From: an archaeon
GTDB lineage: Archaea > Nanobdellota > Nanobdellia > Pacearchaeales > GW2011-AR1
DNA: 64,000 nucleotides
Direction of reading: 5' to 3'
Assembly: GCA_018657525.1 (NCBI GenBank)
Contig: JABHWZ010000003.1
Span: forward strand, 14,840 to 78,839
Shown here: in pieces, positions 7,220-42,987 of the stretch
How the letters are laid out: each line of letters opens with the position of its first letter
Numbering within the stretch: position 1 is the stretch's first letter
Notes under the pieces: generated by a model
Told to the model about the DNA's origin: nothing
Database searches by the model: none
The model's input: the letters and a program-made list of their open reading frames with translations, nothing else
Position numbers and translations under genes: made by a program

Positions 7220-8385
7220 GGTTTTATATTTTTAATTCTCAAATTTGTATGAGGTTAAAATTGTTTGGAGAGGATTTGAAGAAATTATTTATCTTGAACG
7301 GATGGGAAGAAACTTCTTTAGAGACCGCAGATTATATTTTTATTAATTCTTGTAGTTTTTTAAAATCTAAAGAAGATTTTTTTATTAAAAAAATTGGAGG
7401 TTATGATTTTTCAAAAAAGAGAAGTCAAAAAATATTTGTTTTTGGGTGTTTATCTTCTTCGAATCCATCTAGAATTGAGGCGATAAATAAGGAGATTGTT
7501 TTATTTGGTAGAGGATTGGAGCAGTTTGTTGAATATTTTAAATTTAAAAAGACAGACTTTTCTTGTAGTTATACTTCCGTTGAAAAATTATCTTTTTATA
7601 AACAATTTTTGTCTTTTATGAATTTTTTTTTATGGCAGAATCCAAATATTGATTATCGGTTAAAAAGGGATAAGATTTTTCATTTGAAGATTTCTGAAGG
7701 TTGTTTGGGTAATTGTAGTTATTGTTCAGAAAAGTTCACCACTAAATTAAAGAGTAGGAAGATAAACAATCTAATTTTTGAATTCAAGGAGGGGATAAAA
7801 AGAGGATTTTCTATTTTTTGTTTTAATTCAGATGATACTTCTGTTTTTGGAAGGGATAATGATGAAAATATTTATGATTTGTTGGCAGGAGTCTTAAATT
7901 TGAATGGAGATTTTTTATTAGCAGTCACAGAATTTAATCCGGGAGGTTTATTGGATGAAAGGGCAGTGGATTTATTAACTTCTTCTAAAATTTGTTATAT
8001 CACTTTGCCGATTCAGAGTGGAAGTCAAAAAATCTTGGATAAAATGAATAGGTGTTATAATATCAATGAGATTATTGATAAAATTTTACTTATTAAAAAG
8101 TTAAATCCTTTAGTTAAAATAAATACTCATTTAATTGTGGGCTTTCCTGGGGAAACAGATTTTGATTTTGATAAGACCCTGTCTTTGGTTAAAAGTGGAG
8201 TTTTTGATAGAGTTAAAATTTTTAAATATAGTAATCGGCCATTTACTAAAGCTTCTAAATTTATAGGTAAAATTTCTGAGGAAATTAAAGATAAGAGGGT
8301 TAGAATGATTAAGAAGGCTATTTTACTCAATATTATTAAAAAAGGGAGTTTCCCAGATTTCATTCTTAATTTTGGGGGTATATGA
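7216..8385 (+). CDS. radical SAM methylthiotransferase-like enzyme (MiaB/MtaB/RimO family)
   Basis: Three N-terminal Cys in MTTase-like contexts (..QIC.., FINSCSF, VFGCLSS). Radical SAM motif CLGNCSYC. Start overlaps the upstream stop. Confidence 0.7.
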   Translation: MRFYIFNSQICMRLKLFGEDLKKLFILNGWEETSLETADYIFINSCSFLKSKEDFFIKKIGGYDFSKKRSQKIFVFGCLSSSNPSRIEAINKEIVLFGRGLEQFVEYFKFKKTDFSCSYTSVEKLSFYKQFLSFMNFFLWQNPNIDYRLKRDKIFHLKISEGCLGNCSYCSEKFTTKLKSRKINNLIFEFKEGIKRGFSIFCFNSDDTSVFGRDNDENIYDLLAGVLNLNGDFLLAVTEFNPGGLLDERAVDLLTSSKICYITLPIQSGSQKILDKMNRCYNINEIIDKILLIKKLNPLVKINTHLIVGFPGETDFDFDKTLSLVKSGVFDRVKIFKYSNRPFTKASKFIGKISEEIKDKRVRMIKKAILLNIIKKGSFPDFILNFGGI

Positions 8386-11411: not shown

Positions 11412-11434
11412 TTCTCTTTTTCACAATTCGCATT

Positions 11435-11481
11435 CACGCTTAAAAATTTTATTTTTACCTCCGGGATTAAATTTCGCGTAA
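11435..11481. repeat. module F1 (CACGCT..AAATTT..CCTYCGG..AATTTCGCGTAA), copy 1
   Basis: Aligns by eye with 22365..22411 and partly with 32078..32113 (inside polB). Confidence 0.7.
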
Positions 11482-11488
11482 TTGCTCA

Positions 11489-11714
11489 CCCACTATGTAA
11501 TGAATATCTATATATTACAAAAGTTTTATGTTTCGCGAACAAGTCGCTCACTGCATTTTGAAATTATCTAAAGTTTTTCAAAACACAACGTCGGATATAA
11601 AATCCTTGCTGCATTTTGAAATTATCTAAAGTTTTTCAAAACACAAAGGTTCCCTTATAAAACTTTATTTTCACTCCCACTATGTAATGAATATATATAT
11701 TACAAAAGTTTTAT
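11489..11714. repeat. nested direct repeats A-x-B-y-B-z-A
   Basis: A = cccactatgtaatgaatat(ct)atatattacaaaagttttat at 11489-11529 and 11676-11714. B = a 38-nt perfect repeat at 11551-11588 and 11609-11646, separated by 20 nt. Confidence 0.9.
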
Positions 11715-12395: not shown

Positions 12396-12620
12396 GAAAG
12401 ATTATAAATATGGCCTCGATAACCTAAAGGTCACGAGAACCTGTAGGCAGGAGGGATTTAGTCGCTTCGCTCTCAACTTCGCTGAACATCAATTTCGCTA
12501 AAATTGACATAAACCATCGACAACTTCTGTGGAAGTAAAATATTTTTGAATTTCCAAACATTAAAATTTCTTTCAGAAATTGTTATAATCTTTTTGAGAA
12601 AGATTATAAATATGGCCTCG
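12396..12620. repeat. 23-nt perfect direct repeat (tRNA-Lys acceptor 3' strand plus 15 nt of 3' flank) bracketing a 179-nt GC-richer insert
   Basis: gaaagattataaatatggcctcg at 12396-12418 and 12598-12620. The insert starts with module GATAACCTAAAGGTCACGAGAACCTGTAGGCAGGAG. Confidence 0.9.
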
Positions 12621-12687
12621 AAGGGATTTGAACCCTCGACACCCAGATTAAGAGTCTGGTGCTCTGACCAGGCTGAGCTACGAAGCC
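12613..12687 (-). tRNA. tRNA-Lys (anticodon CUU)
   Basis: Hand-folded cloverleaf: GGCTTCG/CGAGGCC acceptor, GCTC/GAGC D stem, CCAGA-CTCTTAA-TCTGG anticodon arm, GAGGG-TTCAAAT-CCCTT T arm. 75 nt. Confidence 0.85.
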
Positions 12688-14129: not shown

Positions 14130-14430
14130 AGTTTCGATGTGTGTGGCTGCACTTTGTGCATTTGAAGAATTTTGTTTCTGCTTCGTCTGATGCTCGTGTT
14201 TGGACTGTCCAGAAGTATGCTTCTTCGTTTCCACATTTTGTGCATTTATCCTGAACAATTGGTTCTGTTTGAATATTTTGTTTAAGGACAGTTATTTTTT
14301 TTATTTCTGGACCTTTTTCAGAAGTTTTTAATTTTGTGACTTTTCCTTTTGAAATGTAACTGCATCTTGGGCAACCTAATTTTTTAGTTTTTTTTATTAG
14401 TACTGCTCCGCATTTTGGGCAAAATTCCAT
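14122..14430 (-). CDS. tfs: transcription factor S / RNA polymerase subunit M (TFIIS-type)
   Basis: N-terminal CPKCG..CPRC ribbon and C-terminal CTKCG...QTRASDE..F.CTKC ribbon carrying the acidic loop. Confidence 0.85.
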   Translation of the reverse strand: MEFCPKCGAVLIKKTKKLGCPRCSYISKGKVTKLKTSEKGPEIKKITVLKQNIQTEPIVQDKCTKCGNEEAYFWTVQTRASDEAETKFFKCTKCSHTHRNYD

Positions 14431-14620
14431 TATATGAATCTCCCTACTAATTTTGCATCAACAATGCTTTGCTGTGTTAGACAAAACTCCATTAGAAGAT
14501 ACTCCTTACTAATTTTGCATCAACAATGCTTTGCTGTGTTAGACAAAACTCCATTAGAAGATACTCCTTACTAATTCTGCATCAACGATATTTGAAGTTA
14601 TTAGATAAAATTCCATTATA
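14421..14620 (-). repeat. about 3.2 tandem units of 62 bp, each restarting with the tfs start (ATGGARTTTTGY)
   Basis: aaaa[tc]tccat at 14421, 14483, 14545 and 14607. The units encode 20-codon uORFs linked by UAAUG overlaps. Confidence 0.9.
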
Positions 14621-19465: not shown

Positions 19466-21772
19466 ATGGTAGAAAAAAATAAAAAAATAAATTTGAGAGT
19501 TGCAGAATCTTTACAGGATGATGCATATAAGGGAATTGCTAGAATTGATATGGAAATGATGAGGGAGTTAGGTGTGCGGCGAGGTGATATAATTAAGATT
19601 AAGGGAAATAAGGAAACTGTGGCTGTTGTGGATCGAAGTTATCCAGCAGATGTTGGGACAGGAATAATTCGTATTGATGGTATTTTAAGAAGGAATGCTA
19701 AAACTGGAATTGGTGATAATGTAATTATTTTGAAGGCGGAAGTTAAAGAGGCTAAAAAGATTAGCATTGCTCCTGCTCAGCAAGGGATTATGGTCCAAGC
19801 AGATTCAGAAACTTTGAGAAGGGGTCTTTTGGGAAGAGCATTAGTTAAAGGAGATATATTGATGATTGGAGGTGCTCGTCGAAGAATGGATTTGATGGGG
19901 GGAGATATGGGGGATTTTGGTGGAATGTTAGGAGACATGTTGGGAAATGCAGGATTAGGGAATTTGGGGGGAGGAGTTACTCAAATTAAATTTGTTGTAG
20001 TAAATACTAATCCTAGTCAAGCAGTTGTAATTAATGAAACTACTGAGATTGTTTTAAATTCAAAAGCAGTAGATACTACTGATGAAAAAATTCCAGATAT
20101 TACTTATGAAGATATTGGAGGGTTAAGTGAAGAAGTTAAGAAGATTCGAGAGATGGTAGAAATTCCTATGAAGCATCCTGAAATTTTTCATAAGCTTGGG
20201 GTGGAGCCACCAAAGGGAGTTTTGTTGCATGGGCCTCCTGGGACTGGTAAAACGCTTTTAGCCAAGGCTGTCGCAAATGAATCAGACGCTAATTTTATTT
20301 TATTAAATGGGCCTGAGATTATGTCAAAATTTTATGGTGAATCAGAAAAGAAGATAAGGGATATTTTTGAGGAAGCAGAAAAAAATGCTCCTTCAATTAT
20401 TTTTATTGATGAGATTGATGCTATTGCTCCAAAACGAGAAGAGGTTCATGGGGAAGTTGAGCGAAGGGTTGTTTCTCAGATTTTGACAATGATGGATGGT
20501 TTAAAGTCTCGAGGGAAAGTTATTGTTATTGGTGCAACTAATCGAGTAAATGCACTTGATCCTGCTTTAAGAAGGCCAGGAAGATTTGACAGGGAAGTAG
20601 AAATTGGGGTTCCAGATAAAGCCGGAAGATTGCAGGTGTTAAAGATTCATACCCGGGGAATGCCTTTAATAAAAAATGTGAAGTTAGATGAAATTGCTAC
20701 TTTGACTCATGGGTTTGTTGGAGCTGATTTGGAATCTTTAACTAAAGAAACTGCAATGGTTGTATTAAGAAAATATTTACCTGAAATAAAATTGGAGGAC
20801 GGGTTTGAACAAATACCTCCTGAGATTTTATCAAAATTAGTAGTGAGTCATGAAGATTTTTTAGATGCACTTAAAGTTGTAAGACCTTCTGCTATGAGGG
20901 AAGTTCTTGTTGAGACTCCAAATATTAACTGGGAAGATGTTGGGGGATTAGATCTAGTTAAACAGGAATTAAAGGAAGCTGTTGAATGGCCTATGAAATA
21001 TCCTGAGAGTTTTGTTAGAATGGGGATTAGGCCTTCGAGAGGGATTTTACTTTATGGTCCACCTGGAACAGGAAAGACTATGCTTGCTAAGGCTGTCGCA
21101 AAAGAATCAGAAGCGAATTTTATAACTGTGAAGGGGCCGGAATTGTTGAGTAAATGGATTAATGATTCTCATGCTGGCTTGAAAAAAATGTTTGAAAGAG
21201 CAAGGCAGGTTTCTCCATGTATAATCTTTTTTGATGAGATTGAGGCAATAGCTAGAAGAAGAGGAGGGGAGTCTAATGTTGCAATTGAAGATTCTAAAGT
21301 TTTGAATCAGTTATTAGCAGAGATGGATGGTCTTGAAGATTTAAATGATGTTTTGATAATTGGAGCTACAAATAGGCCAGATATGTTGGACGCGGCTATT
21401 TTGAGACCAGGAAGATTTGATAAAATTTTATTTGTGAATGCTCCAGATGAAAAAGGACGAGAAAAAATTTTAAAGATTCATACTCGAAGTATGCCGATTA
21501 AGGGAAAGGAAAATTTAATTGGTAATCTTGTTAAAAAGACAGAGGGTTACACTGGAGCGGATTTAGAGGCTGTGACTCGTGAAGCTGCGATGTTGGCGTT
21601 GAGGGAAAATATGGATTCTCAAGATATTAAGAAAAGTCATTTTGATGAAGCTTTGAAAAAAGTGAAACCTTCTGTAACTAAAAATACTATTGCTAATTAT
21701 AAAAAAATTGAGGATAGTTTTTTACAATCTGCCAAGGCCGCAATTCCTGCTGCAGAGGGATATTTAGGATAA
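19466..21772 (+). CDS. cdc48: Cdc48/VCP-like AAA+ ATPase (paralog 1)
   Basis: N-domain plus two AAA modules (GPPGTGKT twice, DEID/DEIE Walker [20 protein letters not shown]). Confidence 0.95.
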
Positions 21773-22176
21773 TGGGATTTTTTGACGAAGACGGATTTGG
21801 AATAGAAGAGTTTTTTAAGAATTTTAATGGGGGAGAAAATGTTGCGGAATATACTACTGTTGGTTCAGACGGAAAAAAAAGAACTATGCGAAATACTCCT
21901 AGAAATTCAAAGGGTATTCCTGCGAAGCAGGTTGTTTCTCAAGATGAAGTTTTTTTTATTTTTGATTTTTCTGGAGAAAATAATGTTCATGTTGAAGTTG
22001 GAGATGAGTTAGTTTCTAATAATTATGGGGAAAAAGTTTCAACTGGACAAAAAGTTTTGAATATTAAATCATCTAGTAAAGATTTGGGAAATTTTGTTCT
22101 TTCTAAAAAGATTAAATTAAAAACGCTGGAGTTTACATTTAATAATGGAATCTTGGAGGTAAGTTTTAAAAAATGA
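21772..22176 (+). CDS. small Hsp20/alpha-crystallin-like protein
   Basis: The beta-sandwich-like C-terminal half ends in FNNGILEVSFKK (compare the NGVLxI motif). Sits between the two cdc48 genes with ATGA-type overlaps. Confidence 0.45.
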   Translation: MGFFDEDGFGIEEFFKNFNGGENVAEYTTVGSDGKKRTMRNTPRNSKGIPAKQVVSQDEVFFIFDFSGENNVHVEVGDELVSNNYGEKVSTGQKVLNIKSSSKDLGNFVLSKKIKLKTLEFTFNNGILEVSFKK

Positions 22177-22459
22177 AAAACGGATTAATGTTAGATATTG
22201 TTAAACCTAAAAGACACCCGCTGGTTTCTTTTGAACTTCCTCAAAGCTCGGCTCGGCGATTTCCAATTGCCTCCTGCGAAATCGCAAGGTTGTTAAGACA
22301 CTCGTTGATTTCTTTTGAACTTCCTCAAATATCGGTTCGGCAACATCTTTCAATAACTCAAGTCCACGCTCGTAAATTTGAAATTTGCCTTCGGAAGTTA
22401 ATTTCGCGTAAACTTTCGGCCTCCGAGGAATGTTGTGGGCTTCAACAAGGAGATAGAAA
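22173..22459 (+). repeat. 287-nt composite insert beginning with a diverged copy of the cdc48-2 start; the track ORF 22173..22463 is not considered a real gene
   Basis: ATGAAAAACGGATTAATGTTAGATATTGTT versus ATGAAAAATGGATTGATGTTAGATATTGTT at 22460. Internal 50-nt repeat (22213-22262 and 22297-22346), the GGAGGCAA-loop hairpin, and module F1. Confidence 0.85.
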
Positions 22460-24709
22460 ATGAAAAATGGATTGATGTTAGATATTGTTGAAGCAGAAAA
22501 AGATTATTTTGGGAAAAATGTTGTTACGTTGTCATTTGGTGATATGAAAAGATTAGAAATTGTTTCAGGAGATATTTTAAAAGTTAACGGAGAAAAGGAG
22601 TTATATTTTCGAGCAATTAGAACTAATTCCGAGGAAGGAACTATTGGGATTGATGGAGTAGCTAGATCAGTTATTGGGATTTCTGTTGGGGAAAAAGTTC
22701 GAGTTGAAAAAGCTAAAAAATTAGACAAACTAAAAGGGATTACTCTTTCTATTTTGCCAGATAATAATTATAGCAATGATCAGTTAAAGAGTTTTAATGC
22801 TCAGTTAAAAGAAAATGAATTTTTTAGGAAGGTGTTGATTGATTCTCCATTTACTTTAGGTCAGAAAATTTCTGTTCCAACTAATGTGGGCAATTTGACT
22901 TATGTTGTTTCAAAGTGTTTGCCGAAAAAATGTAGTTCGGGAATTGTTGCGGAAGGTACTCGTGTTGATGTAAGTGAGGAGGTTGGTGAGGGTTCAGGAG
23001 TTAATGTTTATTATGAAGATATTGGAGGGTTAAAAGAAGAGATAGAAAAGGTTAGAGAAATGATTGAGTTCCCAATGAATCATCCAGATATTTTCCAGAA
23101 GTTAGGGATTAGTGCACCGAAGGGAGTTTTGTTGACAGGCCCTCCTGGTACAGGTAAGACTCTTTTAGCGAAAGCTGTTGCAACTGAAACTGATGCTAAG
23201 TTTATTTCAATTGCAGGTCCAGAGATAATGAGTAAGTATCATGGGGGATCTGAAGAAAATTTAAGGGCAAAGTTTGAGGAGGCAGAAAAGAATTCTCCTG
23301 CGATTATTTTTATTGATGAGATCGATGCAATTGCTCCGAAGAGAGGAGAGACTCATGACCAGTCTGAGAAAAGGGTTGTTACTCAGCTTTTGACTTTGAT
23401 GGATGGTTTAAAGTCTCGAGGGCAAGTTGTGGTTATGGCAGCGACAAATCGTCCAGAAGATTTAGATGAGGCTCTTAGGCGGCCAGGAAGATTTGATCGG
23501 GAGTTAAGACTTAATCCTCCTTCTGATGCAGGTAGAAAAGAAATCTTGAAGATTCATACTAGAAATATGCCGTTAGGTAATCGGGAGGAAATTTTGGAAG
23601 AGTTTTCTAATAAGACTCTTGGTTATACTGGAGCTGATTTAGAAGTGCTTTGTAAAGAAGCAGCGCTTCGAGCGGTTAAACCATTTTATGCTAAGTTGGT
23701 GGGGATAGAGGATTCAGAAGAAGAGGCCTCGTCGCTGGATTTAAAGAAACAAGAATTGATTTCTCGGGTTGTTGTAACCAAAGAGCATTTTGATTATGCT
23801 ATGAAAATTGTGGAGCCGTCAGCGATGAGAGAAGTGTTGATTAAAAAACCTAATGTTAAATGGGAAGATATTGGAGGTCTTGAAAAAGCAAAGGATAAAT
23901 TACGTGAATTAGTTGAATTGCCGTTGGTGCGTCCGGATTTATTTGATATGGCTGGGATAAAACCCTCAAAAGGCGTTTTAATCTCTGGAGGACCTGGAAC
24001 GGGGAAGACACTTTTAGCGAAGGCAATTGCAAATGAGGCTAAGGCAAATTTCATTTCAGTAAAAGGACCTGAGCTGATTAGTAAATGGGTTGGTGAATCA
24101 GAAAAGCATGTTAGGGAAATTTTTAAGAAAGCTAGGCAAGTTGCACCAGCAATTATTTTCTTTGATGAGTTTGATTCAATTTCAAAATCTCGGGGGGGAA
24201 GTTTGAATGATTCTTCTGAGAAAGTTGTTAATCAGTTATTGACTGAGCTTGATGGAATTGAAGAGTTGGAAAAAGTTATTGTTATTGCGGCGACTAATCG
24301 GAAGGATTTAATTGATCCTGCTGTTCTTCGTCCTGGGAGAATTGATGCTTTGGTTGAATTAGAGATTCCAGATAAAGATACTCGAAAAAAGATTTTTGAA
24401 GTGCATACTAAGAAAATGCCTTTAGATAAATCTGTTAAATTAGATGAGTATGTTTCTAAGAGTGAAGGTTGGACTGGTGCAGACATTGAGGCTGTTTGTA
24501 GAAATGCTGGGATAAATGCGATTAAGGAAGTTTACAAGTTGGATAGTTCTAAAGGATTTAAAATTACAAAAAAAGATTTTGATTATGGCTTAGAAACTGT
24601 AGCACATTCTTCTGGAAGAGAAATTTTTGTAGATAAAAAGACTGGGAAAATTTCTGGGGCAGGGAAAAAAGGAAATTTAACTGAGAATAAAAAAATTAAG
24701 AAGAAATAA
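22460..24709 (+). CDS. cdc48: Cdc48/VCP-like AAA+ ATPase (paralog 2)
   Basis: Same two-AAA architecture ([16 protein letters not shown]). Confidence 0.95.
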
Positions 24710-26067: not shown

Positions 26068-26583
26068 TTATTGTTTAACTGCTTTTTCTTTGACTCTTCT
26101 GTTTTTTGGAATGAAATTTGAAATCTTTTTTTCTGAAACTTTTCCACAGCCCCAAAAATCTTCTTTGAACTTTATTACTTTGAATCCTCTAGTGAATTTT
26201 TCTGGTTCATTTGCAATTTCGTTTTCGGATTTGGAGGATAGATAATTTATTTCATCAAAATATAATTCTTCTCCTTTGAGATATTTTTTTGCTTGTTCTT
26301 CAGTGAGTTCTAAAATGTTTTCTGTTATTTGGTCTTTTAGTATGTGTGTGCCCTCGATACTCAATCTAATTTCGTTTTCTCCAGGGATTAATTTAGCAAA
26401 GTAAGTCCCAACTCTTTCTATTGGTATTGTCTTTTCAAGTTCCCATATCTCAGGAGCGGTTAATGAACCTTGATATAAAAATAATCTTTCTTCTCCTCGC
26501 TGAACAATTAATCCTTGAACTTCTTGAATTCCAAATTGTTTTTTTAGAAGTTGAACTATCTTTTCTTTTTCTTTTCTAGTCAT
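26068..26583 (-). CDS. Nip7-like (pre-PUA/PUA) RNA-binding protein
   Basis: The N-terminal half resembles Nip7 (..RLFLY.., VGTYFAKL). It lies next to the NSUN methylase. The 36 extra N-terminal codons of the track ORF are encoded by a repeat element. Confidence 0.45.
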   Translation of the reverse strand: MTRKEKEKIVQLLKKQFGIQEVQGLIVQRGEERLFLYQGSLTAPEIWELEKTIPIERVGTYFAKLIPGENEIRLSIEGTHILKDQITENILELTEEQAKKYLKGEELYFDEINYLSSKSENEIANEPEKFTRGFKVIKFKEDFWGCGKVSEKKISNFIPKNRRVKEKAVKQ

Positions 26584-26629
26584 TATTTTTAATCCTTTAT
26601 ATTCTCTGGAAAATTTGTGTTGTTTCATT

Positions 26630-26734
26630 GCGAGACAACCCCTTGTTTTCCTCGCGCTCCTTCCTCGAAGCTCTGATACTCCGAAGGGCACGAGAGGGTA
26701 GCATCTTTAAATTGCCTCCGTCGGATGCCACATG
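26630..26734 (-). repeat. 105-nt structured element, copy 1 (immediately 5' of an ATG on the minus strand)
   Basis: Near-full-length match to 42612..42716 in the opposite orientation. Contains the GGAGGCAA-loop hairpin and the GGGCACGAGAG module. Confidence 0.9.
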
Positions 26735-26760
26735 AGCTGATTAATTTATTTTGTTTTATT

Positions 26761-26966
26761 TTTGATATTTTCATTCTTTTATTTTCCTAAATTTACTTAT
26801 GAAGAACCCCTCTGCTCGTGAACCTTCATTGTTATTGAATCTTCTGCTTGTCATTTTATTTTTTTGAATTTTGAAATGAAGAACCCCTCTGCTCGTGAAC
26901 CTTCATTGTTATTGAATCTTCTGCTTGTCATTTTATTTTTTTGAATTTTGAAATGAAGAACCCCTC
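26761..26966 (-). repeat. triplicated NSUN gene 3' end (77-bp units) plus a codon-diverged displaced end
   Basis: Units start at 26799, 26876 and 26953. See findings. Confidence 0.9.
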
Positions 26967-28031
26967 GGTATTATTATCATGAGGATAAACTCTGCAACAT
27001 AATTTTACTTTTGGGTTGAAATTTATTTTTGGATTTTTTTCAGACTTTGCTGTTCCCTCCCGCGAACCACCCTGGGACTCGCTTAGCTCGCTTGATTTAA
27101 TTAACGCAAAGTCTTCTTTTTTTGGATTCCATTCTGTGATTCCTTCTCGACATTTTATTGGGAGTTCTACTTTTTTGATTTTAATTTTATCTCCAAATTC
27201 TTCTAGGGCCCAACTTACTATTGCTTCGTTTTCTTCTGGGGCGTGAGTGCAAGTTGAGTAAATTATTTCTCCGTCAACTTTTAAAATTTCAAAAGCGTGT
27301 TTGAATAATCTTTTTTGAATTTGTGGGAGTGCTTTTGTTACATTTTTTATGTTCCACATTTTGTAGGTTTTATAAGCGCTTCTTAAAGTTCCTTCGCCAG
27401 AACACGGGGCGTCCACAAGGATTTTGTCAAATTTTATTTCTGGGTTGAATTTTGCTAATCTTTTACAAAGTGCGGCTCCTTCTTTTCTGCTGATTATTGT
27501 ATTTGTGACTCCGCATCTTTCTAGGTTTGAAGAAAGAATTCTGAGTCGGCCCATTGAAATTTCATTGGCGATTATTGCTCCTTGGTTTTCCATTGCTGCT
27601 GCTATCTGAGTTGTTTTGGATCCGGGTGCTGCGGCTAGATCTAGGATTAATTCTCCTGCTTTTGGTTTGAGTGCAATTATCGGAAGCATTGAGGCAAGTT
27701 CTTGAATATAATAATATCCGAGTAAATGTTCTTCTGCCCTTCCGAGTTCTCCTGGTTCAAGTGAGATTAAATTATTTTCAGAATTATATTTTCCTTCGAT
27801 AATCATGACTTCCGGGTTTGATTCCCACGGGCGAGATATTTTCCATGTTTTTTCTTCTAATCTTTTTTTTAATTTTTCAGGAGATATTTTTAAGGGGTTG
27901 CAACGGATAGAATTTACTGGTTTTATTTTTAGGATATCCAAATAGGATTGAAAATCTTTTTTATCTGGAAGAAGCTGTTTTATTCGTTCTTCGAATTCAG
28001 GTTTCATTTCTGGAATTTTTATTTTTGTCAT
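26928..28031 (-). CDS. NOL1/NOP2/Sun-family RNA cytosine-C5 methyltransferase
   Basis: DLAAAPGSKT SAM motif; DAPCSGEG and YSTCT catalytic Cys motifs; C-terminal EGFFI. Confidence 0.85.
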   Translation of the reverse strand: MTKIKIPEMKPEFEERIKQLLPDKKDFQSYLDILKIKPVNSIRCNPLKISPEKLKKRLEEKTWKISRPWESNPEVMIIEGKYNSENNLISLEPGELGRAEEHLLGYYYIQELASMLPIIALKPKAGELILDLAAAPGSKTTQIAAAMENQGAIIANEISMGRLRILSSNLERCGVTNTIISRKEGAALCKRLAKFNPEIKFDKILVDAPCSGEGTLRSAYKTYKMWNIKNVTKALPQIQKRLFKHAFEILKVDGEIIYSTCTHAPEENEAIVSWALEEFGDKIKIKKVELPIKCREGITEWNPKKEDFALIKSSELSESQGGSREGTAKSEKNPKINFNPKVKLCCRVYPHDNNTEGFFISKFKKIK

Positions 28032-30252: not shown

Positions 30253-32871
30253 TTAAAAATCTCCAAGAGTCATTTGTTTTTTGCCCTCGAGAATTTCTTT
30301 GATATTGACATCTAAAACTTGGAAAATATTTTCTACTGCCGGAAGAATTTGTTTGTTCAAATAATATTCAATTTCGTATTCTCCTTTTTCAGTTGGAAGT
30401 TTTACTTTATCTCGTACGAGTTTTACTTTTTTCCCTCCTGTCTCGGCGATGTAATATTCAATTAAATTCCCTTGAGAAACAGGGATTTCTTGTTCTTTCA
30501 TTTTTTTTGCTGCAATCACATGTGGGCCCTGAGCTTTGTATTCTGAGAGGGGTTTTTTCAGTTGGGTTTTAATCATTAATTCTTTTAATTTAATTTCTCT
30601 GTTTTTTATTTTTTTTACAATTTCTTTGATATAAATTAAGGCTTTTTTTTCGTTTCCGTCTTTTAAAACTAACTGGATAATTTTGTTTTGTGTTTTTCTT
30701 GCTAGTTTACACCAGTCTCTTCGAACTGTTTCAAAACCGCGGATTTTTATTTTGTCTTCTTTGTCGATTAAGGCGTATTTCTTTTTCGCACCTGTTGTTC
30801 CTGCGCGAGTTGTTACCCAAAGTCCTTTTTCAAAAAATCCTTCAAGTTCGAGTTCCATTATTCCTGGAAGTTTGGAGTTGATTTGTTTTAGAGTTTCTTT
30901 GACTTCTTTTTTGGTCTTTTCGTTGATTAAAAATGCGATTGAATCTGTGTCAGAGTAAATTGTTTTGTAGCCTTCTTTGTCAATTCCCTTGATTGTGTTT
31001 TTAATGAAGTCGCGACTGATTGCGGTTGCTGCTCCAGAGGCTTCAGGACAATAATATCTTGCGCCGAAAAATCCCATATAACCATAAGATGCGTTTGCTA
31101 AAAGTTTGAAAGCATTGCTTCGCGCTTTTTTTAAAACGTCTGGTTTTTCAAACAGTTCTTTTTTGTATTGTTTTCTTTTTTCAATTATTTCTTTTAATAG
31201 TTCTGGAAAGAAACCTGTTTTTTTTGTGAAGTAAACTTTTTTTCCCAGGACTTCAGCTTCGACGGAATCTTTTTCTTTTTTTTCTAGGAGGGTTGATTTT
31301 GATAAATTAAATGTTACTATTATGCTTGGCCAAAAACTTGTGAAATCAAACATTGCAATGTTTTCGTATAAATTTGGGATTGGTTCGAAGACAAATGCGC
31401 CTTCGTATTTTTCTCTTTCTCTTCTTTCTTGGATTTCTTTGTAGCCTGCTTTTCTTTCTGGAATTTCGTTGAAGCGTTTTAAATTATGTAGAATATAATC
31501 TTCAACATTTGAAGACATTCCTTTCCTTGAGACATCAAAGGGGGGTTCTTGAATTACTCTTGAGAATTCTAAAATGTCTGGCCAGAATTTATTGAATAAC
31601 TGGAATGTTAAGAGTGAATCGTGCAAATTGTATTCATAATATTTCTCCCATTCGTTTTCTTTTATTTTTGAAGAGTGTTTAAATTCAAAGTCTTTTTTTG
31701 TGTCGCCTAAAAATTCTTTTGAAACTTCATTTAGCGAGAGAGTTTCTGATTGCATGTACTGAGAGTATGCGGTTCTGATGAATTTTAATAAGTCAATATG
31801 GGGAATGCCTTTTATTTTGCATTTTAAATCTCTGCCTCCGCCGGTTCTTGAAAATCTTGGTTGTGAGTCGTCGAGTCCTAGGTTTAATTTAATGTTGAAT
31901 TTTTGAGCTCTTGCTTTTATGTAGGGTAAGTCAAAACCGTCTGAATAATATCCTACTAAAAAATCAGGGGAGATTTTTTTTACATATTCAATAAATTTTT
32001 CAATTAGTTCTGCTTCGTCCTCGACATATTCCACTTCATTTGATTTATGTTCTGATGGCTCCTGACCTCGCTCGGAATTTTTATTTTTACCTTCGGAATT
32101 TTTTCTCGCAAAATCACTCGTTTTCCATGTTATAACTTTTTTGAAATTGTCTGAAACTAAAGACACCATAAGAATTTCTCCTTCCCCGATTCCGATTTCA
32201 TCTGTTTCAATATCAAAGGCAAGGGTTTTTGGAGTAAAAGTTTTTTTGATATCCTTTTCTCTAATTTTTTTTATTGTGTTTACTTTTATGCACATATCAA
32301 CATCAAGTGCCATGTCAATGCCTCCGAATTCTTCTGAGTTGTTGAGTAATTCTCCTTCAATTTTATACCAGTTTAGTGGGACTAATTCTTTTTCTATAAT
32401 GTAATGGCTGATATATCCCAAGTCATAGCCTCTTCTTTTGTCAATTTCTGGGAAGTCGATGTGGCTTGCAATGTCGTGCATGTCTTTATAGTTTGTCGCG
32501 AATACTTTTAGGGCCTGGACTTTTTGCCCAAGGAAATTTTTTTCATGTAACTCTACTTTTTCAACTTTTGTTTTTCTGCCTTTTACATCTAATTGAATTT
32601 TAAGAATTTTTTTAGTTATTTTTTCAACACTGCTCAGTGTGCCTTTCTTTGCGGACCGATCGGCATACTCCAAAAAGTTTGAATTCTGGAGCAAGTGCTT
32701 GGGTGTTTTGATTTGAGAAATTTTTGGTTTTAGAATTGCCCAGAGATAAACTGGACATTCATCTATAATGCAAATTTGTTTGCCTGTTTCGTTTCTTCCG
32801 ATGATTCGCGCGTAGTTTCTTCCTTTAAAATCAAAGTAATCGTAGTCAATTGGGATGAATTTTGTTTCCAT
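30253..32871 (-). CDS. polB: family-B DNA polymerase
   Basis: Exo motifs FDIET and YSDGFDLPYI. Pol motifs SFWPSIIV, KLLANASYGY and YSDTDS. C-terminal QMTLGDF is PIP-like. Start at METKFIPIDYDYF; upstream track codons are rejected. Confidence 0.95.
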   Translation of the reverse strand: METKFIPIDYDYFDFKGRNYARIIGRNETGKQICIIDECPVYLWAILKPKISQIKTPKHLLQNSNFLEYADRSAKKGTLSSVEKITKKILKIQLDVKGRKTKVEKVELHEKNFLGQKVQALKVFATNYKDMHDIASHIDFPEIDKRRGYDLGYISHYIIEKELVPLNWYKIEGELLNNSEEFGGIDMALDVDMCIKVNTIKKIREKDIKKTFTPKTLAFDIETDEIGIGEGEILMVSLVSDNFKKVITWKTSDFARKNSEGKNKNSERGQEPSEHKSNEVEYVEDEAELIEKFIEYVKKISPDFLVGYYSDGFDLPYIKARAQKFNIKLNLGLDDSQPRFSRTGGGRDLKCKIKGIPHIDLLKFIRTAYSQYMQSETLSLNEVSKEFLGDTKKDFEFKHSSKIKENEWEKYYEYNLHDSLLTFQLFNKFWPDILEFSRVIQEPPFDVSRKGMSSNVEDYILHNLKRFNEIPERKAGYKEIQERREREKYEGAFVFEPIPNLYENIAMFDFTSFWPSIIVTFNLSKSTLLEKKEKDSVEAEVLGKKVYFTKKTGFFPELLKEIIEKRKQYKKELFEKPDVLKKARSNAFKLLANASYGYMGFFGARYYCPEASGAATAISRDFIKNTIKGIDKEGYKTIYSDTDSIAFLINEKTKKEVKETLKQINSKLPGIMELELEGFFEKGLWVTTRAGTTGAKKKYALIDKEDKIKIRGFETVRRDWCKLARKTQNKIIQLVLKDGNEKKALIYIKEIVKKIKNREIKLKELMIKTQLKKPLSEYKAQGPHVIAAKKMKEQEIPVSQGNLIEYYIAETGGKKVKLVRDKVKLPTEKGEYEIEYYLNKQILPAVENIFQVLDVNIKEILEGKKQMTLGDF
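32622..32672. repeat. hairpin element AACACTGCTCAGTGT..TTTGCGG.., copy inside polB (in frame)
   Basis: Aligns with 39901..39951. Confidence 0.8.
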
Positions 32872-32967
32872 GTTTTGGTAAAAGACTGTAGATTTATATA
32901 TTTGATTGTATTTTTTGTTACCCCTCTTAAATGCTAAATACCAAAGATTTATATAGTCCTGGGCCCT

Positions 32968-33429
32968 ATGAGTAATATGGATACAACTGGTTATTCGGAA
33001 GGATTTCTCTCCAGTGAAGGAGGAGCACTTGTATCTGTTGGTGTCGCAAATCAACCAGATCCTGTTGATTATGATGCTTTGGAAGTAAAATATGGCCGAA
33101 CAAAGGATCAAGAACCTAGCGTTAAAGAATTGATTGATATTTCTGAAGAATCGTGTAGGGGAAGACAAGTACTTTTAGGAGATGAATTTGAGACTCTTGA
33201 AGATAATGCTGAGTTAAGGAAAGCTAGAAATTTATTGGGCAGATGTGATTTTGCTTGGGGTGTTTGGGGCGAAGATACTTGGAGGATATATGGTTTGCCA
33301 GTTCTTAGAGCGGTTGAAAAAGAGTATGGTCTTGCACCTATTAAATCTAGGAAAATTCCTCTTTCAAAGAAACTTTGGATGAGAAGAGATTTTTTAGCTA
33401 ATAAAATAACTGAACTGCAACATCAATAA
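32968..33429 (+). CDS. hypothetical acidic protein
   Basis: 153-aa ORF divergent from polB. No motif. Confidence 0.35.
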   Translation: MSNMDTTGYSEGFLSSEGGALVSVGVANQPDPVDYDALEVKYGRTKDQEPSVKELIDISEESCRGRQVLLGDEFETLEDNAELRKARNLLGRCDFAWGVWGEDTWRIYGLPVLRAVEKEYGLAPIKSRKIPLSKKLWMRRDFLANKITELQHQ

Positions 33430-38997: not shown

Positions 38998-39882
38998 ATG
39001 AGGGGGAAATTTATTTTTGGGGTGTTTTTTTTGTTCTTATTATTGGGGAATTTGGGTGCTCAAGTTGGTGGGGACGAGATAGTAAAGGGGGGGGAAGCTG
39101 TTGAAAAAGTTGAAGAGCTTTTTTCTGAACCAGATACTGCTCTGGATTATTTGAGGAGAGAGTGGACAAAGATTTTTGAAACAAAGCCGTATATTGGAAA
39201 AACACTTTCTGTTTTAGATTCTGTTTTTACTTGGGTGAGTCCTTTTTTTAAATATGTTTTAGGAATTTCTTATGCAATGAGTTTTGAGTTTTTTTTGACT
39301 TTACTTTTCTTTTTAGTTTTATCAATTTGGGGTTTTAGGATTTCTGCTTTTTTTATACCGTTTTCAATTAATTATGGGAGTTATTTAAGGTGGGCAGGAA
39401 CGTTTGGGATTATTTTAATTTTGAGGTTTACTCTTTTTCCGCATTTTATTTTGACTACTATTTTTAATCAGGTTTCTAAACTTGATGCTTGGTATAATCA
39501 GATTGTATTTGTGTTAGTCTTTTTTTCTATTTTAGCTGTTTTACATGCTTATTCTAAAAATTTGGAAAAAGCCTTTGAAAATTGGGGAACTGGGGTTAAG
39601 AGAAAGTTTTTTGACAATAAAACCCTAGAGGCAGAAGCGAAAGCAGAAGAAGCTAAGGAAGAAGTTAAAGCTATTGTTAGTGGTAAGATTCCTTTCAGAA
39701 AAGGAGCGGGAGCAGGAACTCCAATTATTCAATATGGAGATCCAATAACTGGAAAGAAATCCAAATCTGAATTATTTGAGAAAGCATGGGAAGATTCATT
39801 GGAAATTTCTAAGAAAATTAAAACGCCTAAGATTCCAAAAGTTCCAAAGTATGGTAAGAAGTTAAAAAAAGAAGGGCTTTAA
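38998..39882 (+). CDS. membrane protein (signal peptide plus about 5 TM, Lys-rich tail)
   Basis: Hydrophobicity pattern. Confidence 0.45.
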   Translation: MRGKFIFGVFFLFLLLGNLGAQVGGDEIVKGGEAVEKVEELFSEPDTALDYLRREWTKIFETKPYIGKTLSVLDSVFTWVSPFFKYVLGISYAMSFEFFLTLLFFLVLSIWGFRISAFFIPFSINYGSYLRWAGTFGIILILRFTLFPHFILTTIFNQVSKLDAWYNQIVFVLVFFSILAVLHAYSKNLEKAFENWGTGVKRKFFDNKTLEAEAKAEEAKEEVKAIVSGKIPFRKGAGAGTPIIQYGDPITGKKSKSELFEKAWEDSLEISKKIKTPKIPKVPKYGKKLKKEGL

Positions 39883-39900
39883 TTTTTTTGAGATTTATTT

Positions 39901-39951
39901 TTTTAACACTGCTCAGTGTACCCCTTTTTGCGGTTTGCTTGGGCATATTTC
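39901..39951. repeat. hairpin element AACACTGCTCAGTGT..TTTGCGG.., copy forming the 3' end of CDS 39913..40692
   Basis: Aligns with 32622..32672. Confidence 0.8.
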
Positions 39952-41636: not shown

Positions 41637-42055
41637 AAGATTTTGATGACTTTCTAAAAAGAGGGGTGGTTAAAAAACAATCTGTTAATGAGCCAAGAGC
41701 TAAAGATTTGGTTTCTGAAGCTGAAAGAAAATTAAGTTCAATGAATCGTGTTATTAAGAAAATAGGAATTGATGACGCAAATGCTAATGATATTATTGAA
41801 AATTGTTGCGATATTATTCTTAGTTTAATACGTTCGAAAATGTTTTTGAAGGGGTTTAGCGCTTCTGGAAGTGGAGCTCATGAAGCAGAAGTTTCTTTTT
41901 TAAAAAAATTGGAATTTAATGAACAACAAATCGAATTTATTAATTCTTTGAGATATTTTAGGAATGGAATTTTGTATTATGGAAAACGATTTGATAAAGA
42001 ATATGCAAAAAAAGTAGTCAAATTTTTAAAACAGGTAAAGGTTAAATTAAAATGA
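41633..42055 (+). CDS. HEPN-like domain protein (partner of the MNT)
   Basis: 140-aa all-helical protein with a 4-nt overlap with the MNT gene. The R-x4-H position reads FRNGILYY (His replaced by Tyr). Confidence 0.5.
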   Translation: MKDFDDFLKRGVVKKQSVNEPRAKDLVSEAERKLSSMNRVIKKIGIDDANANDIIENCCDIILSLIRSKMFLKGFSASGSGAHEAEVSFLKKLEFNEQQIEFINSLRYFRNGILYYGKRFDKEYAKKVVKFLKQVKVKLK

Positions 42056-42987
42056 GATCTTATAGTGTTTTGGGGAATATAGCGTTGGTTAATTTTCCGA
42101 GGGAATTTAAAGGAAGCAAAATTAATTTTGCTAAGAAAATTTTGAAAGAGAACAAATCAGTTAAGACTGTTTTGGAAAAAGTGGGAAAATTTTCTGGGAG
42201 GTTGAGGAAGATTTCAACTAAATGGTTAGCGGGGGAAAAAAATAAAGAAGTTTTGTATAAAGAAAATAATTGTGTTTTTAGATTTAATATTGATTCAACT
42301 TATTTTTCTCCGAGGCTGAGTAATGAGCGGAAAGAGATTGCAGGATTGGTTAAGAAAGATGAAAATGTTTTAGTTATGTTTGCAGGGGTGTCACCGTTTT
42401 CAATTGTTATTGCGAAGAATTCAAAAATTGGGCGTAGTTCTGCGTACCCTAAATTGCGGAATGCTAAGGTATATTCAAATGAGATAAATCGCGAAGCAAA
42501 TAAATACGCGAAGTTAAATATTGAATTAAATAAATTGAAAGAGAGGGTTGAATTGTTGCCTGGTGATATCAAAAAAGTTACTGAGAAAATTTTGAAGGGG
42601 TGGAGGGAAAACCATGCGGTATCTGTAGGAGGCAAAGAAAAGATGCCGCCCTCTCGTGCCCTTGAGGGTATCAGTGTTTCGAGGAAGGAGCGCGAGGAAA
42701 ACAAGGGGTTGCCTCGCTTTGATGTGATTGTAATGCCGCGACCGCAGTTGAAAGATAGTTTTTTGGAGCAGGCGTTTAAGTTGTCAAAACGCGGAACGCG
42801 AATTTATTATTATGATTTTTGTAAAATTGATGCTCTTGAAGGAACAAAGTATTTTGATTTGATTATTAAGAAGATTAAAGATGAGGCAAAAAAAGCTGGG
42901 AAGAAAATTAGAATTGTGAATAAGAAATTGGCGGGAGATATTGCTCCGTATAAGTATCGTGTGCGGGTTGATTTTATAATTTTGTAA
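42052..42987 (+). CDS. Trm5/Taw22-like tRNA (m1G37) methyltransferase carrying two in-frame repeat insertions
   Basis: YFSPRLSNER, VLVMFAGVSPFSI, YSNEIN, and FDVIVMPRP (NPPY-equivalent). Confidence 0.7.
   Translation: MRSYSVLGNIALVNFPREFKGSKINFAKKILKENKSVKTVLEKVGKFSGRLRKISTKWLAGEKNKEVLYKENNCVFRFNIDSTYFSPRLSNERKEIAGLVKKDENVLVMFAGVSPFSIVIAKNSKIGRSSAYPKLRNAKVYSNEINREANKYAKLNIELNKLKERVELLPGDIKKVTEKILKGWRENHAVSVGGKEKMPPSRALEGISVSRKEREENKGLPRFDVIVMPRPQLKDSFLEQAFKLSKRGTRIYYYDFCKIDALEGTKYFDLIIKKIKDEAKKAGKKIRIVNKKLAGDIAPYKYRVRVDFIIL
42612..42716 (+). repeat. 105-nt structured element, copy 2, in frame inside the Trm5-like CDS
   Basis: Encodes ..HAVSVGGKEKMPPSRALEGISVSRKEREENKGLPR.. between conserved Trm5 motifs. 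Confidence 0.9.

Follow-up and report, generated by a model that had tools for sequence, protein, structure and literature searches.

The 5' end of cdc48-2 in the 64,000-nt stretch of Pacearchaeales DNA analysed here (the window) probably records the insertion, at an ATGA gene junction, of tandem units of an element from a tRNA-intron family, with duplication of the target and with a bridge open reading frame (ORF) through the insert that would now couple translation across it. What entered the junction of a co-oriented gene pair, an sHSP-like (small heat-shock protein-like) gene and cdc48-2, was a small, structured and mobile element in two tandem units, and 36 nt of target, namely a leader of 3 nt and 11 codons, was duplicated. 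From the downstream copy cdc48-2 regained an intact 5' end, and a meaningless ORF now starts in the upstream copy.

An earlier, sequence-only reading of this DNA had described two start regions for the gene, and both are there: ATGAAAAACGGATTAATGTTAGATATTGTT at 22173 and ATGAAAAATGGATTGATGTTAGATATTGTT at 22460, which differ at two synonymous sites (AAC/AAT and TTA/TTG). The other sequence features that it had listed were also all found where it had placed them. A blastn search within the window recovers a duplicated core of 33 nt (94% identity, E=1.8e-8), and the best-supported boundaries are those of a 36-nt direct repeat (33/36 identical) made up of three upstream bases and 11 codons. The upstream copy (22170-22205, + strand; AAA and 11 codons) is contiguous with the sHSP-like gene and the downstream copy (22457-22492, +) with the body of cdc48-2; the 11th codon is AAA (K) in the upstream copy versus GAA (E) in cdc48-2. 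With three mismatches between the copies, the insertion event is not recent. The cdc48-2 gene itself (22460-24709, +) is intact, encoding 749 aa with a CDC48_N and two AAA domains, and its N-terminus aligns to orthologues from residue 1. Upstream lies an ORF of 134 aa (21772-22176, +), a gene for a divergent and putatively sHSP-like (alpha-crystallin) protein. It found no match in Pfam and, as a single sequence, none in the PDB; a profile of three of its orthologues matches the sHSP structures 5ds2, 5ds1, 2h50 and 1gme over residues 62-132 (E=5e-4 to 9e-3). The TGA of this gene overlaps the ancestral cdc48-2 ATG at 22173, and an ancestral Shine-Dalgarno (SD)-like GGAGGT (22155-22160, +) stands 12 nt before the old ATG. 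The same motif is kept at the same distance in the orthologues with empty sites (L003-L006) and here probably now serves the pseudo-ORF.

The stretch between the two ATGs is open in frame, as had been claimed, and forms a pseudo-ORF of 96 codons (22173-22463, +) that extends from the old ATG to a TGA overlapping the real ATG at 22460. It reads the element in the latter's only open sense frame, the other two sense frames of the insert containing 7 and 8 stops. An assembly artefact is excluded: the 96-aa ORF was read, unchanged and between the same genes, on 24 contigs, and it is indexed in 32 blocks of the collection. Comparison with orthologous junctions had been suggested as a way to tell repeat-derived sequence from a conserved protein family, and this comparison came out on the side of the former: the loci L003/L004 and L005/L006, as well as the gene calls of the P0002 contig, lack the 96-aa ORF. 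At these orthologous loci, where Cdc48 is 76-85% identical, an upstream gene of 134 or 122 aa overlaps cdc48-2 by ATGA, uninterrupted, which indicates a lineage-specific insertion with target duplication.

Public assemblies annotate the ORF as a gene and its frame is kept in a strain variant of 68 aa, as might be expected of a genuine small protein gene. It is, however, extremely unlikely to be one. Among 5.8 billion proteins its only relative is that strain variant, it has no Pfam match, it is missing from the orthologous loci, and its sequence arises by translating a non-coding element, an intron at other sites. Judged by these sequence comparisons, the 96-aa ORF is not a protein family. A minus-strand frame that is open across the whole insert and resembled a winged-helix C-terminus was considered as a fragment of a protein gene and rejected because its homology is weak: a search of 1.84 billion representatives returned four weak matches (E 3e-5 or worse) to proteins of 52-90 aa, and the frame has no Pfam match. 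Translational bypassing between the two copies was also rejected, the gap of 287 nt being far larger than the ~50 nt of known bypasses and the real start having an ATG and SD of its own.

The insert proper (22206-22456, +) is 251 nt long and absent from the orthologous junctions. It consists of CCT, element units and a terminal ...AAGGAGATAG, and has a GC content of 0.44 versus 0.30 and 0.365 in the flanking genes. The view that it is composite and nested was borne out by a covariance model of sequence and structure (R1: P1 of 10 bp, linker CUUCCUC, P2 of 8 bp with loop UAAUUGCCUCC), which matches it at 22209-22288 and 22293-22354. The first match, unit A (+), covers the model over its full length (positions 1-80; 86.6 bits, E=1.3e-15) and is a complete, canonical element copy in which a P1 hairpin (AAAAGACACC/GGTTTCTTTT) is followed by a linker with CUUCCUC and a P2 hairpin (GCGATTTC/GAAATCGC, loop CAAUUGCCUCCUG); it is ~85% identical to the tRNA-Lys(CTT) intron of locus L051. 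The second is a partial match (22.4 bits, E=0.011) to the 5' part of a unit B (+), with a second P1 and linker and without a canonical P2. The internal repeat that had been noticed in this region runs over 22211-22257 and 22295-22341 (87% identical, period 84). The hairpin does exist, with loop GGAGGCAA on the minus strand (22267-22274), and its loop octamer occurs 8 times in the window versus 1.24 expected. Module F1 (22348-22411, +; loop ...TTTGCCTTCGG...) was confirmed as well; it has relatives in the window at 11418-11481 and 32050-32113 and seems to represent a hairpin module of this element family that has diverged. The insert has no stable global fold (z-scores -0.8 and -1.2); only the modular helices matter. 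Searches against Rfam recovered two tRNAs at gathering score in the window and only noise, at E up to 10, in 22100-22560. We rejected the terminal motif TTTAGGTT as a hallmark of the family, since its three occurrences in the window are fewer than expected; insert/repeat junctions account for two of them (22204 and 12421), and a gene contains the other.

The insert is polymorphic. Alignment of L007 and L008, which are 100% identical otherwise, shows that the 68-aa strain variant is missing a unit of 84 nt, or 28 codons (22225-22308, +; boundaries ambiguous within an identical 21-nt core of the internal repeat). The repeat that remains in the variant is a hybrid, with copy 1 on the left and copy 2 on the right.

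The element family is widespread in Pacearchaeota, Woesearchaeota and Nanoarchaeota, which belong to the DPANN group of very small archaea. A scan of metagenomes yielded at least 119 stretches, and the DPANN matches in a scan of GTDB genomes all have the same 51-nt spacing. We found no account of the family in the open-access literature searched, and it was apparently undescribed before. Its fold consists of two helices and a loop contact. In the helices, 98.1% of cells are paired and compensatory changes are seen at seven pairs; covariation is scored at 0.185 versus 0.089 for shuffles (0/500 reach 0.185), with slid controls at or below 0.076. The loop contact, 12:46, is made by GC, UA, AU and CG pairs among copies. 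Wobble pairs proved uninformative for strand assignment (G:U 32 versus A:C 30): the balanced mispairs are compatible with either strand as the functional one, and with selection on RNA or on DNA. Most copies have a precise terminus, (T)AAAAGAAACC, that adjoins the duplication, and the 3' end is variable, for example ...AAGGAGATAG or ...GAGCCCAA. The element ends share no inverted similarity; there are no terminal inverted repeats.

Introns at the canonical tRNA position (37/38) account for 17/116 copies, all in sense orientation, and occur in tRNA-Lys, Ser, Phe, Thr, Leu and Gly. By their sequence and position, we take these family members to be bona fide tRNA introns in related DPANN archaea. 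In the tRNA-Lys of L051, the bulge-helix-bulge (BHB) motif, the signature recognised by the splicing endonuclease EndA, reads CUCU[UAA]...GGAG[AAA]UCUGG and has a central helix of 4 bp and an outer helix of 5 bp. Intron-bearing tRNAs were missed by default tRNA scans. The copies outside tRNA introns (99/116) include some at the starts of protein genes, at tRNA 5' and 3' ends and at in-frame positions inside proteins. A copy of module F1 in PolB forms a 23-aa in-frame insertion relative to Pfu PolB (2jgu), at the position where the PolB of L081 has a canonical element, and the ~45 extra residues of Trm5b relative to 5yac contain the element of a second sub-family. In these two coding genes the frame is kept; at cdc48-2 the element lies in the bridge ORF and not in the gene.

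The spliced tRNA introns of the same sequence family raise the question of whether the insert could be a functional BHB intron in the mRNA. EndA would then cut both repeats at equivalent positions and ligation would restore the ancestral ATGA junction, making the bridge ORF irrelevant. Broad-specificity splicing endonucleases are known in DPANN archaea (PMC3239211), and the 3' segment of the element pairs with the end of the upstream 'exon', like a BHB central helix. We consider this very improbable. In a scan, no motif that would remove exactly 287 nt rose above background. Among candidates with a full 4-bp central helix, the outer helix did not exceed 3 bp, a length that matches the 95th percentile for random pairs, whereas the tRNA-Lys control (L051) scored 4+5. 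In addition, the pairing between target end and element is a continuous helix of 8-10 bp that lacks the two 3-nt bulges, and splicing would leave unexplained both the frame bias of such insertions, all at distances of 2 mod 3, and their open frame.

These two features emerge from the comparison of loci. Three other loci, representing two further target genes, have the same architecture at the start of a protein gene. The distance from ATG to ATG is 143 nt in L212, 134 in L029, 167 in L233, 287 at cdc48-2 and 203 in its strain variant; thus, all distances at protein-gene 5' ends (four insertions in three target genes, plus the variant) are 2 mod 3, where the targets count as three independent ones because the same gene is hit in L029 and L233, possibly in a single old event. 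All of these insertions are open in the frame ...KR(H/N)PLVSF(E/K)LPQ..., and in each the stop falls within an AAATGA that overlaps the real start, although an overlapping stop is cheap to get by chance, given that 27/56 genes in the window begin with ATGA. Insertions associated with tRNAs have distances of 109-168 nt with residues of 0, 1 and 2 mod 3.

The shared 2 mod 3 distances, the common open frame and the AAATGA stops lead us to favour, from this comparison, the interpretation that the pseudo-ORF keeps translational coupling. Initiation would have stayed at the old ATG, with the old SD and the ATGA overlap with the sHSP-like gene. Ribosomes would then traverse the element in its single open sense frame, terminate at the TGA within AAATGA and re-initiate at the real ATG. 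A second bridge ORF is found in the window between a HIT-family gene and pheT (60506-60631, -). Elsewhere in the window, we tested a 136-nt repeat (58140-58460) as the template and variable repeats of a diversity-generating retroelement and rejected it, as its mismatches are not adenine-specific.

Long target duplications of 10-75 nt, defined by an anchored repeat score of at least 10, accompany 22/96 copies (shifted control, 2/95) and are often located at gene termini. Lengths in single cases include 15, 18, 19, 21, 22, 24, 31, 33, 36, 39 and 43 nt; in L212 the repeat is perfect over 39 nt. Copies at tRNA 5' or 3' ends have target duplications of 15-43 nt. Where coding is dense, insertions that duplicate a long target are likely to be tolerated chiefly at places where a gene end falls within the duplication; those at the starts of protein genes would need an open frame as well.

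The AAGGAG that had been pointed out 7 nt before the real ATG is present at 22447-22452 (+) and is borne by the element, as seen from homologous element ends in L212 (AAGGGGATAG), L029 (AAGGAGAATTGAA) and the tRNA-Lys intron (GAAGGAGAA). It may assist re-initiation; an SD-like 5-mer precedes 5/56 genes in the window versus a background of 3.4%, a weak enrichment, and with SD use this weak the importance of AAGGAG is uncertain. The 3' segment of the element, GCTTCAACAA (22439-22448, +), is a perfect complement of TTGTTGAAGC at 22485-22494, a stretch that runs across the 3' end of the duplicated target. Between the paired segments, a loop of 36 nt holds both AAGGAG and the real ATG, and this 10-bp clamp may serve to present the two. 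A target-complementary segment of 8-10 nt is also carried by the elements in L212, L029, L233, L148/L181 and L184, and exact complementarity of at least 8 nt was found in 7/15 cases versus 3/206 mismatched pairings.

No enzyme for the mobility of the element was identified. Tentatively, the insert may be a fossil of the way in which protein-spliced archaeal introns move: a structured intron RNA of ~85 nt (or a copy of it) would pick targets by the pairing of its variable 3' segment and then be written into DNA where an RNA or a gene ends, with duplication of 15-43 nt of target. Target pairing would then be the same contact that forms the BHB central helix in tRNAs.

An unlikely alternative to dedicated transposition is that the element was pasted by template switching during replication or by microhomology-mediated repair. 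A nascent strand would have left at ...ATTGTTGAA, copied a donor with similar flanks and re-entered upstream at AAAATGAAAAAT, which would yield the duplication. The targets at cdc48-2 and L212 do have both repeat ends in common (AAAATGAAAAAT and ATTGTTGAAGC), and their elements are nearly identical, including an extra CCT at the 5' junction. A variable duplication length, an insert that is a mosaic of partial units and a unit number that shifts by recombination, as in the 84-nt polymorphism, fit as well. Template switching does not, however, predict a target-complementary segment in unrelated sub-families (L148, TGCATGAT; L119, GCTACGAGCC; L029, GCAGCTTC), nor a precise conserved terminus abutting the duplication in most copies, nor the sense-only orientation of the introns.

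When integrative elements of archaea enter a target gene, tens of its bases are duplicated. It has also been proposed that introns may be gained, and tRNA fragments duplicated, when a mobile element integrates into a tRNA gene (PMC3293823). The direct repeats could be the attL and attR cores of a larger, integrase-encoding element that has since decayed to 251 nt. The chance of this is remote, as the insert consists entirely of short family modules, neither strand has protein homology that could mark an integrase remnant, and the same core is found in elements of 100-130 nt next to a variety of targets whose repeats differ in sequence, which an att site carried by the element cannot explain.

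The element has partial parallels in several known systems. A mobile element in an archaeal tRNA gene duplicates part of that gene and has been tied to intron gain (Sugahara et al. 2012, PMC3293823). Similarly, part of a tRNA gene is duplicated beside the inserted element in our family, but the element described there is 1.8 kb long and encodes a recombinase, whereas ours has 85-250 nt, no coding capacity and many targets. BHB introns of Thermoproteales are alike across many tRNA species, implying movement (Fujishima et al. 2010, as summarised in PMC4033280). Our family resembles these transposing introns in occupying the canonical position in six tRNA species, and differs from them in being found in DPANN archaea, in lying mostly outside tRNA introns and in having a two-helix fold with a loop contact supported by covariation. 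Like MITEs and other non-autonomous DNA transposons, the element is small and structured, has many copies and no coding function, and lies between direct repeats of its target; unlike them, it lacks terminal inverted repeats, its target duplication is long and variable rather than fixed, and one of its ends is precise and the other ragged. Retroposition of SINEs and LINEs produces variable-length target duplications and elements with one precise and one variable end. The same pattern is seen here (precise end ...GGTTTCTTTTA, on the opposite strand), but the element has no A-tail and no reverse transcriptase is linked to it, so this is a resemblance only. Finally, the palindromic elements of Rickettsia (RPEs; Ogata et al. 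2000) are reportedly short, GC-shifted repeats that form hairpins in a genome both reduced and AT-rich, and are said to enter protein-coding and RNA genes with reading frames kept open, much as in PolB and Trm5b here. To our knowledge, these elements are bacterial, are not introns, and have no long gene-terminus duplications and no SD or target-complementary segment, in contrast to our archaeal, intron-forming family.

For archaeal tRNA-type introns, similarity across tRNAs had hinted at transposition, and we know of no insertion footprints available so far. The cdc48-2 locus and its relatives provide such footprints, with filled and empty sites, defined duplication ends, a precise terminus and a complementary segment, and a further one in the polymorphism of unit number within a natural population. 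The same layout at other archaeal genes suggests that introns in archaea are spread as mobile DNA. In a genome of such compactness, insertions in operon junctions and essential genes are tolerated by means of a bridge ORF ending on the next start, an element-borne SD-like motif, and in-frame read-through as in PolB and Trm5b; in DPANN genomes, gene callers label such bridge ORFs hypothetical proteins. If the mobile-intron interpretation is true, this would be a family of mobile introns, guided by RNA, that settle alike in tRNA genes, at mRNA starts and in coding sequence, and that bring along their own ribosome-binding site and open frame, with which the host genes survive.

The start of cdc48-2 (22460..24709, +), which encodes a Cdc48 ATPase, is duplicated as the sequence-only reading had described, with near-identical starts at 22173 and 22460 spaced 287 nt apart. 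The direct repeat is best bounded at 22170-22205 and 22457-22492 (36 nt, identity 33/36); two of its three differences are synonymous, and the third falls in codon 11 (GAA in cdc48-2, AAA in the upstream copy). The other features claimed for this junction also hold: the intervening sequence is open in a single sense frame, as a 96-aa ORF (22173..22463, hereafter the bridge ORF) whose TGA overlaps the real ATG, the Shine-Dalgarno (SD)-like motif AAGGAG lies 7 nt 5' of that ATG, and a nested internal repeat has an 84-nt period (22211-22257 and 22295-22341, 87% identical). The insert (22206..22456), the 251 nt that separate the repeat copies, has a GC content of 0.44; the flanking genes have 0.30 and 0.365 and the AT-rich window 0.32. 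Going by the Cdc48 proteins nearest to its own, the window derives from an archaeon of the Pacearchaeota/Nanoarchaeota type (DPANN). The same arrangement is found on 24 public-assembly contigs, and thus is not an assembly artefact.

The bridge ORF had been taken for repeat-derived sequence, and orthologous junctions agree, being uninterrupted and lacking the ORF. In the loci of the closest non-identical Cdc48-2 proteins, a 134- or 122-aa upstream gene ends in a TGA that overlaps the cdc48-2 ATG, with nothing between (P0003, 79% identical, and P0004, 76%; for P0002, 85%, gene calls were used). Base-by-base comparison shows that the left repeat copy is continuous with the upstream gene (21772..22176, +) and its conserved GGAGGT, and the right copy with the conserved cdc48-2 body. 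These continuities, together with the empty orthologous junctions, indicate that the 36 nt were ancestrally present in single copy. The locus is thus an insertion of two tandem units of an element family, with a 36-nt target duplication that left cdc48-2 intact. The upstream gene had no match in Pfam; a profile of three of its orthologues matched small heat-shock protein structures (E=5e-4 to 9e-3), by which it is probably a divergent small heat-shock-like protein.

We rejected the 96-aa ORF as a real gene on the basis of the orthologous junctions, the lack of a Pfam match and its sole relative among 5.8 billion proteins, P0121 (68 aa). This relative is encoded on two contigs (sample accessions ERZ27237599 and ERZ27237606) whose sequence matches that of the window at 100% identity through the junction, apart from the exact loss of 84 nt, and their remaining internal repeat is a hybrid, its left part from copy 1 and its right part from copy 2. 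Given identical flanks and six differences between the two internal repeats, the repeats recombined recently, and unit number thus varies within the natural population. The deletion equals 28 codons, so the bridge ORF remains open in the strain variant. The minus strand of the insert is likewise open throughout; its translation gave only four weak matches, to proteins of 52-90 aa, among 1.84 billion representatives.

The element belongs to a family of small structured repeats in DPANN archaea. The recurring hairpin reported previously, with minus-strand loop GGAGGCAA, was indeed found repeatedly in the window, and its stems vary between copies through changes that preserve pairing. When one genome per GTDB species was scanned with a degenerate pattern, many random bacterial matches formed the background to a conspicuous set in Pacearchaeota, Woesearchaeota and Nanoarchaeota, all with the 51-nt spacing of the insert, and a tighter 22-mer pattern matched at least 119 metagenome stretches. 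On the cdc48-sense strand the consensus reads (T)AAAAGAAACCCGCUGGUUUCUUUUGAACUUCCUCAAA...GAACGGCGAUUUCUAAUUGCCUCCGAUGAAAUCGC and then runs into a variable tail. Aligning 36 diverse copies supported a helix P1 of 10 bp, a helix P2 of 8 bp whose 14-nt loop is conserved, and a two-base contact linking the P1 loop to the base of P2, with 98.1% of cells paired, compensatory changes in 7 pairs and a covariation of 0.185 vs 0.089 when shuffled (0/500); slid controls were far lower. No family in Rfam resembles the element. The covariance model built from this alignment (R1) scored 86.6 bits over its full length at 22209-22288 (E=1.3e-15) and 22.4 bits at 22293-22354, a partial second unit, confirming the composite insert of the sequence-only reading. 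Short tandem arrays in metagenome contigs L126 (~4130-4400) and L145 (1940-2040), with periods of 122 and 76 nt, resemble the two-unit array at the cdc48 junction. In a Woesearchaeota genome (L084, ~7768-7818, -), a copy directly adjoins the 16S rRNA gene at its 3' end, with flank AGGAGGTGATCC; the rRNA retains the CCUCC anti-SD.

Module F1 of the insert (22348-22411) looks like a diverged hairpin module. In the window PolB gene (30253-33168, -), F1 at 32044-32118 adds 23 residues in frame (RKNSEGKNKNSERGQEPSEHKSN) to the exonuclease domain when compared with Pfu PolB, and PolB of the related genome L081 has a canonical element at this site. A second repeat-derived stretch in the window PolB, 32608-32685, matches 39878-39933. 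The Trm5b-like gene (42052-42987, +) has ~45 extra residues at ~42580-42716 (TEKILKGWRENHAVSVGGKEKMPPSRALEGISVSRKEREENKGLP) relative to Trm5b 5yac; these hold an in-frame element of a second sub-family, also present at 26597-26745 (-), where it lies 5' of the gene at 26068. Directly after a gene stop, an F1 copy (11418-11481) lies just upstream of a ~51-nt direct repeat from an AT-rich intergenic region (11479-11529 and 11666-11714), which brackets an insert holding a perfect 38-nt repeat (11551-11588 and 11609-11646).

The family includes real tRNA introns. Intron-aware ARAGORN placed 17 of the 116 unique listed copies, every one in sense orientation, at the canonical intron position inside tRNA genes; a further 20 adjoin tRNA genes and 79 lie elsewhere. 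The interrupted tRNAs are Lys(CTT), Ser(GGA/GCT), Phe(GAA), Thr(GGT), Leu(CAA) and Gly(GCC), and the 85-nt tRNA-Lys intron at locus L051 forms the expected bulge-helix-bulge (BHB), CUCU[UAA]...GGAG[AAA]UCUGG. The element strand that is sense in tRNAs corresponds to cdc48 sense in the window. The window's own tRNA-Glu(CTC) with a 117-nt intron (56106-56297, -) was found with the ARAGORN intron option only, and missed by default ARAGORN and Rfam. Downstream of both tRNA-Glu(CTC) and tRNA-Gln(CTG), ~14-19 nt of the 3' end of the tRNA gene recur (56040-56105 and 56340-56505, -), twice in the case of tRNA-Gln(CTG), and two such repeats enclose homologous ~55-nt elements (...GTTCGATACC...CACRAGAACCTGAGGACAG), one 3' of each tRNA gene. 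At 12396-12621, a perfect 24-nt direct repeat (GAAAGATTATAAATATGGCCTCGA), made up of the last 9 nt of tRNA-Lys(CTT) and downstream flank, brackets a 178-nt insert whose end beside the repeat reads CCTTTAGGTTA (compare CTTTTAGGTTT at the cdc48 insert).

Target duplication is recurrent in the family. Direct-repeat searches anchored at the conserved element terminus found a flanking repeat scoring at least 10 in 22/96 usable listed copies vs 2/95 with the anchor shifted by 60 nt. Duplicated targets include the 5' ends of tRNA-Glu (loci L071, L218 and L079; 21, 18 and 15 nt) and tRNA-Lys(TTT) (L119 and L136; 24 and 22 nt) and the 3' ends of tRNA-Gly (L156 and L162; 19 nt). Beyond cdc48-2, three more protein-gene starts have element-flanking repeats. 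The cleanest is L212, where a pilin-like gene carries a perfect repeat of 39 nt (AAAATGAAAAAT...ATTGTTGAA) and an element nearly identical to that of the cdc48 insert, sharing its 5'-junction CCT and 3' end ...GCTTCAACAAGGGGATAG; in L029 and L233 another gene (MITYNDIYEA...) has its first 10-11 codons duplicated. In all four loci a bridge ORF begins at the old ATG, reads the element in a common frame (...KR(H/N)PLVSF(E/K)LPQ...) and terminates with the TGA within AAATGA, which overlaps the real ATG. The element end AAGGAGATAG has homologues in L212 (AAGGGGATAG), L029 (AAGGAGAATTGAA) and the intron (GAAGGAGAA), and thus the SD-like motif is supplied by the element. The ATG-to-ATG distances (287, 143, 134 and 167 nt, and 203 in the strain variant) are all 2 mod 3, with a chance of ~0.004 given three independent targets and two frame-preserving within-lineage length changes; tRNA-associated cases show residues 0, 1 and 2. 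A second bridge ORF in the window (60506-60631, -; 41 codons, MKKIKKLNVFHATSVGGNLRSCPTASRGKVKRRKPQVSSHG) lies between a HIT-family gene and pheT; its ATG overlaps the HIT-family stop (ATGA, 60628-60631), its stop overlaps the pheT start, 8 nt into pheT, and the related element that it reads through (R1 19.4 bits, 60512-60601, + strand) is antisense to pheT.

Part of the element's 3' segment is exactly complementary to the duplicated target at its 3' end: GCTTCAACAA against TTGTTGAAGC in the window and L212, GCAGCTTC in L029, CAGCTTCG in L233 and TGCATGAT in loci L148/L181. Complementarity of at least 8 nt occurs in 7/15 repeat-flanked cases vs 3/206 mismatched element/target pairings, two of the three being window-by-L212 cross pairs. 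The corresponding segment of the tRNA introns pairs with the exon 1 end, giving the central helix of the splicing motif; at protein genes the predicted target-end helix would loop out the SD and real ATG (35-37 nt). This suggests that base pairing is involved in target choice or insertion, though no mechanism considered fits every junction. Splicing of the 287 nt was rejected. A BHB scan for their exact excision found nothing above background, candidates with a full 4-bp central helix having outer helices of at most 3 bp, the 95th percentile of random pairs (tRNA-Lys control, 4+5), and the target end pairs with the element segment in one unbroken, bulge-free helix. The frame bias likewise argues for an RNA that would be read and not spliced.

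The element lacks terminal inverted repeats, its duplications vary in length, and one end is precise and the other ragged, which argues against a classical cut-and-paste element. By their defining tests it is neither a MITE nor an integrase att duplication. Template switching between loci with similar flanks may have produced the insertion, in keeping with the repeat ends common to the window and L212; alternatively, integration may have been RNA-mediated, guided by the 3' segment. G:U and A:C mispairs are balanced and favour neither strand as the selected one. No account of the family turned up in a search of open-access literature. The closest known system is the transposition of tRNA introns among tRNA genes proposed for Thermoproteales (Fujishima et al. 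2010, as described in PMC4033280), and a related system is intron gain tied to mobile-element integration (PMC3293823). Inside proteins, as in PolB (23 aa) and Trm5b (~45 residues), it behaves like Rickettsia palindromic elements. We file the finding under two known kinds, mobile archaeal intron and frame-tolerant short repeat.

The window has further repeats. Three tandem 62-nt units (14415-14600, -) are copies of the ribosome-binding region and the five initial codons of a Zn-ribbon gene (MEFCPKCG...); two of the upstream units form mini-ORFs (MEFCLTQQSIVDAKLVRSIF*), their stop overlapping the ATG that follows. A 77-nt tandem array (26777-26966; 2.5 copies, 91% identical) has as its unit the last ~12 codons and stop of an RsmB/NSUN-like gene (26928-28031, -) plus 41 nt. 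For a 136-nt repeat pair (58140-58275 and 58325-58460, 83% identical) with internal hairpin GACAAATCTCTGGCGAGATTTGT, a diversity-generating retroelement was rejected since the mismatches are not adenine-specific.

The bridge ORF has the geometry needed for termination-reinitiation. Ribosomes would pass through it, terminate, and re-initiate at the real cdc48-2 ATG, for which the element-borne AAGGAG may matter. ATGA starts occur in 27/56 window genes, and SD-like motifs are weakly enriched before them (5/56 vs 3.4% background). The old SD region (22151-22164, CUUGGAGGU) can pair with an anti-SD-like stretch of the insert (22412-22428, GCCUCCGAGG) over 14 bp with one bulge, and further element motifs are CUUCCUC and UUGCCUCC, so the element might sequester SD sequences. 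In so dense a genome, insertions would persist only if the duplication spans a gene end, and at protein-gene starts the right frame would also be required.
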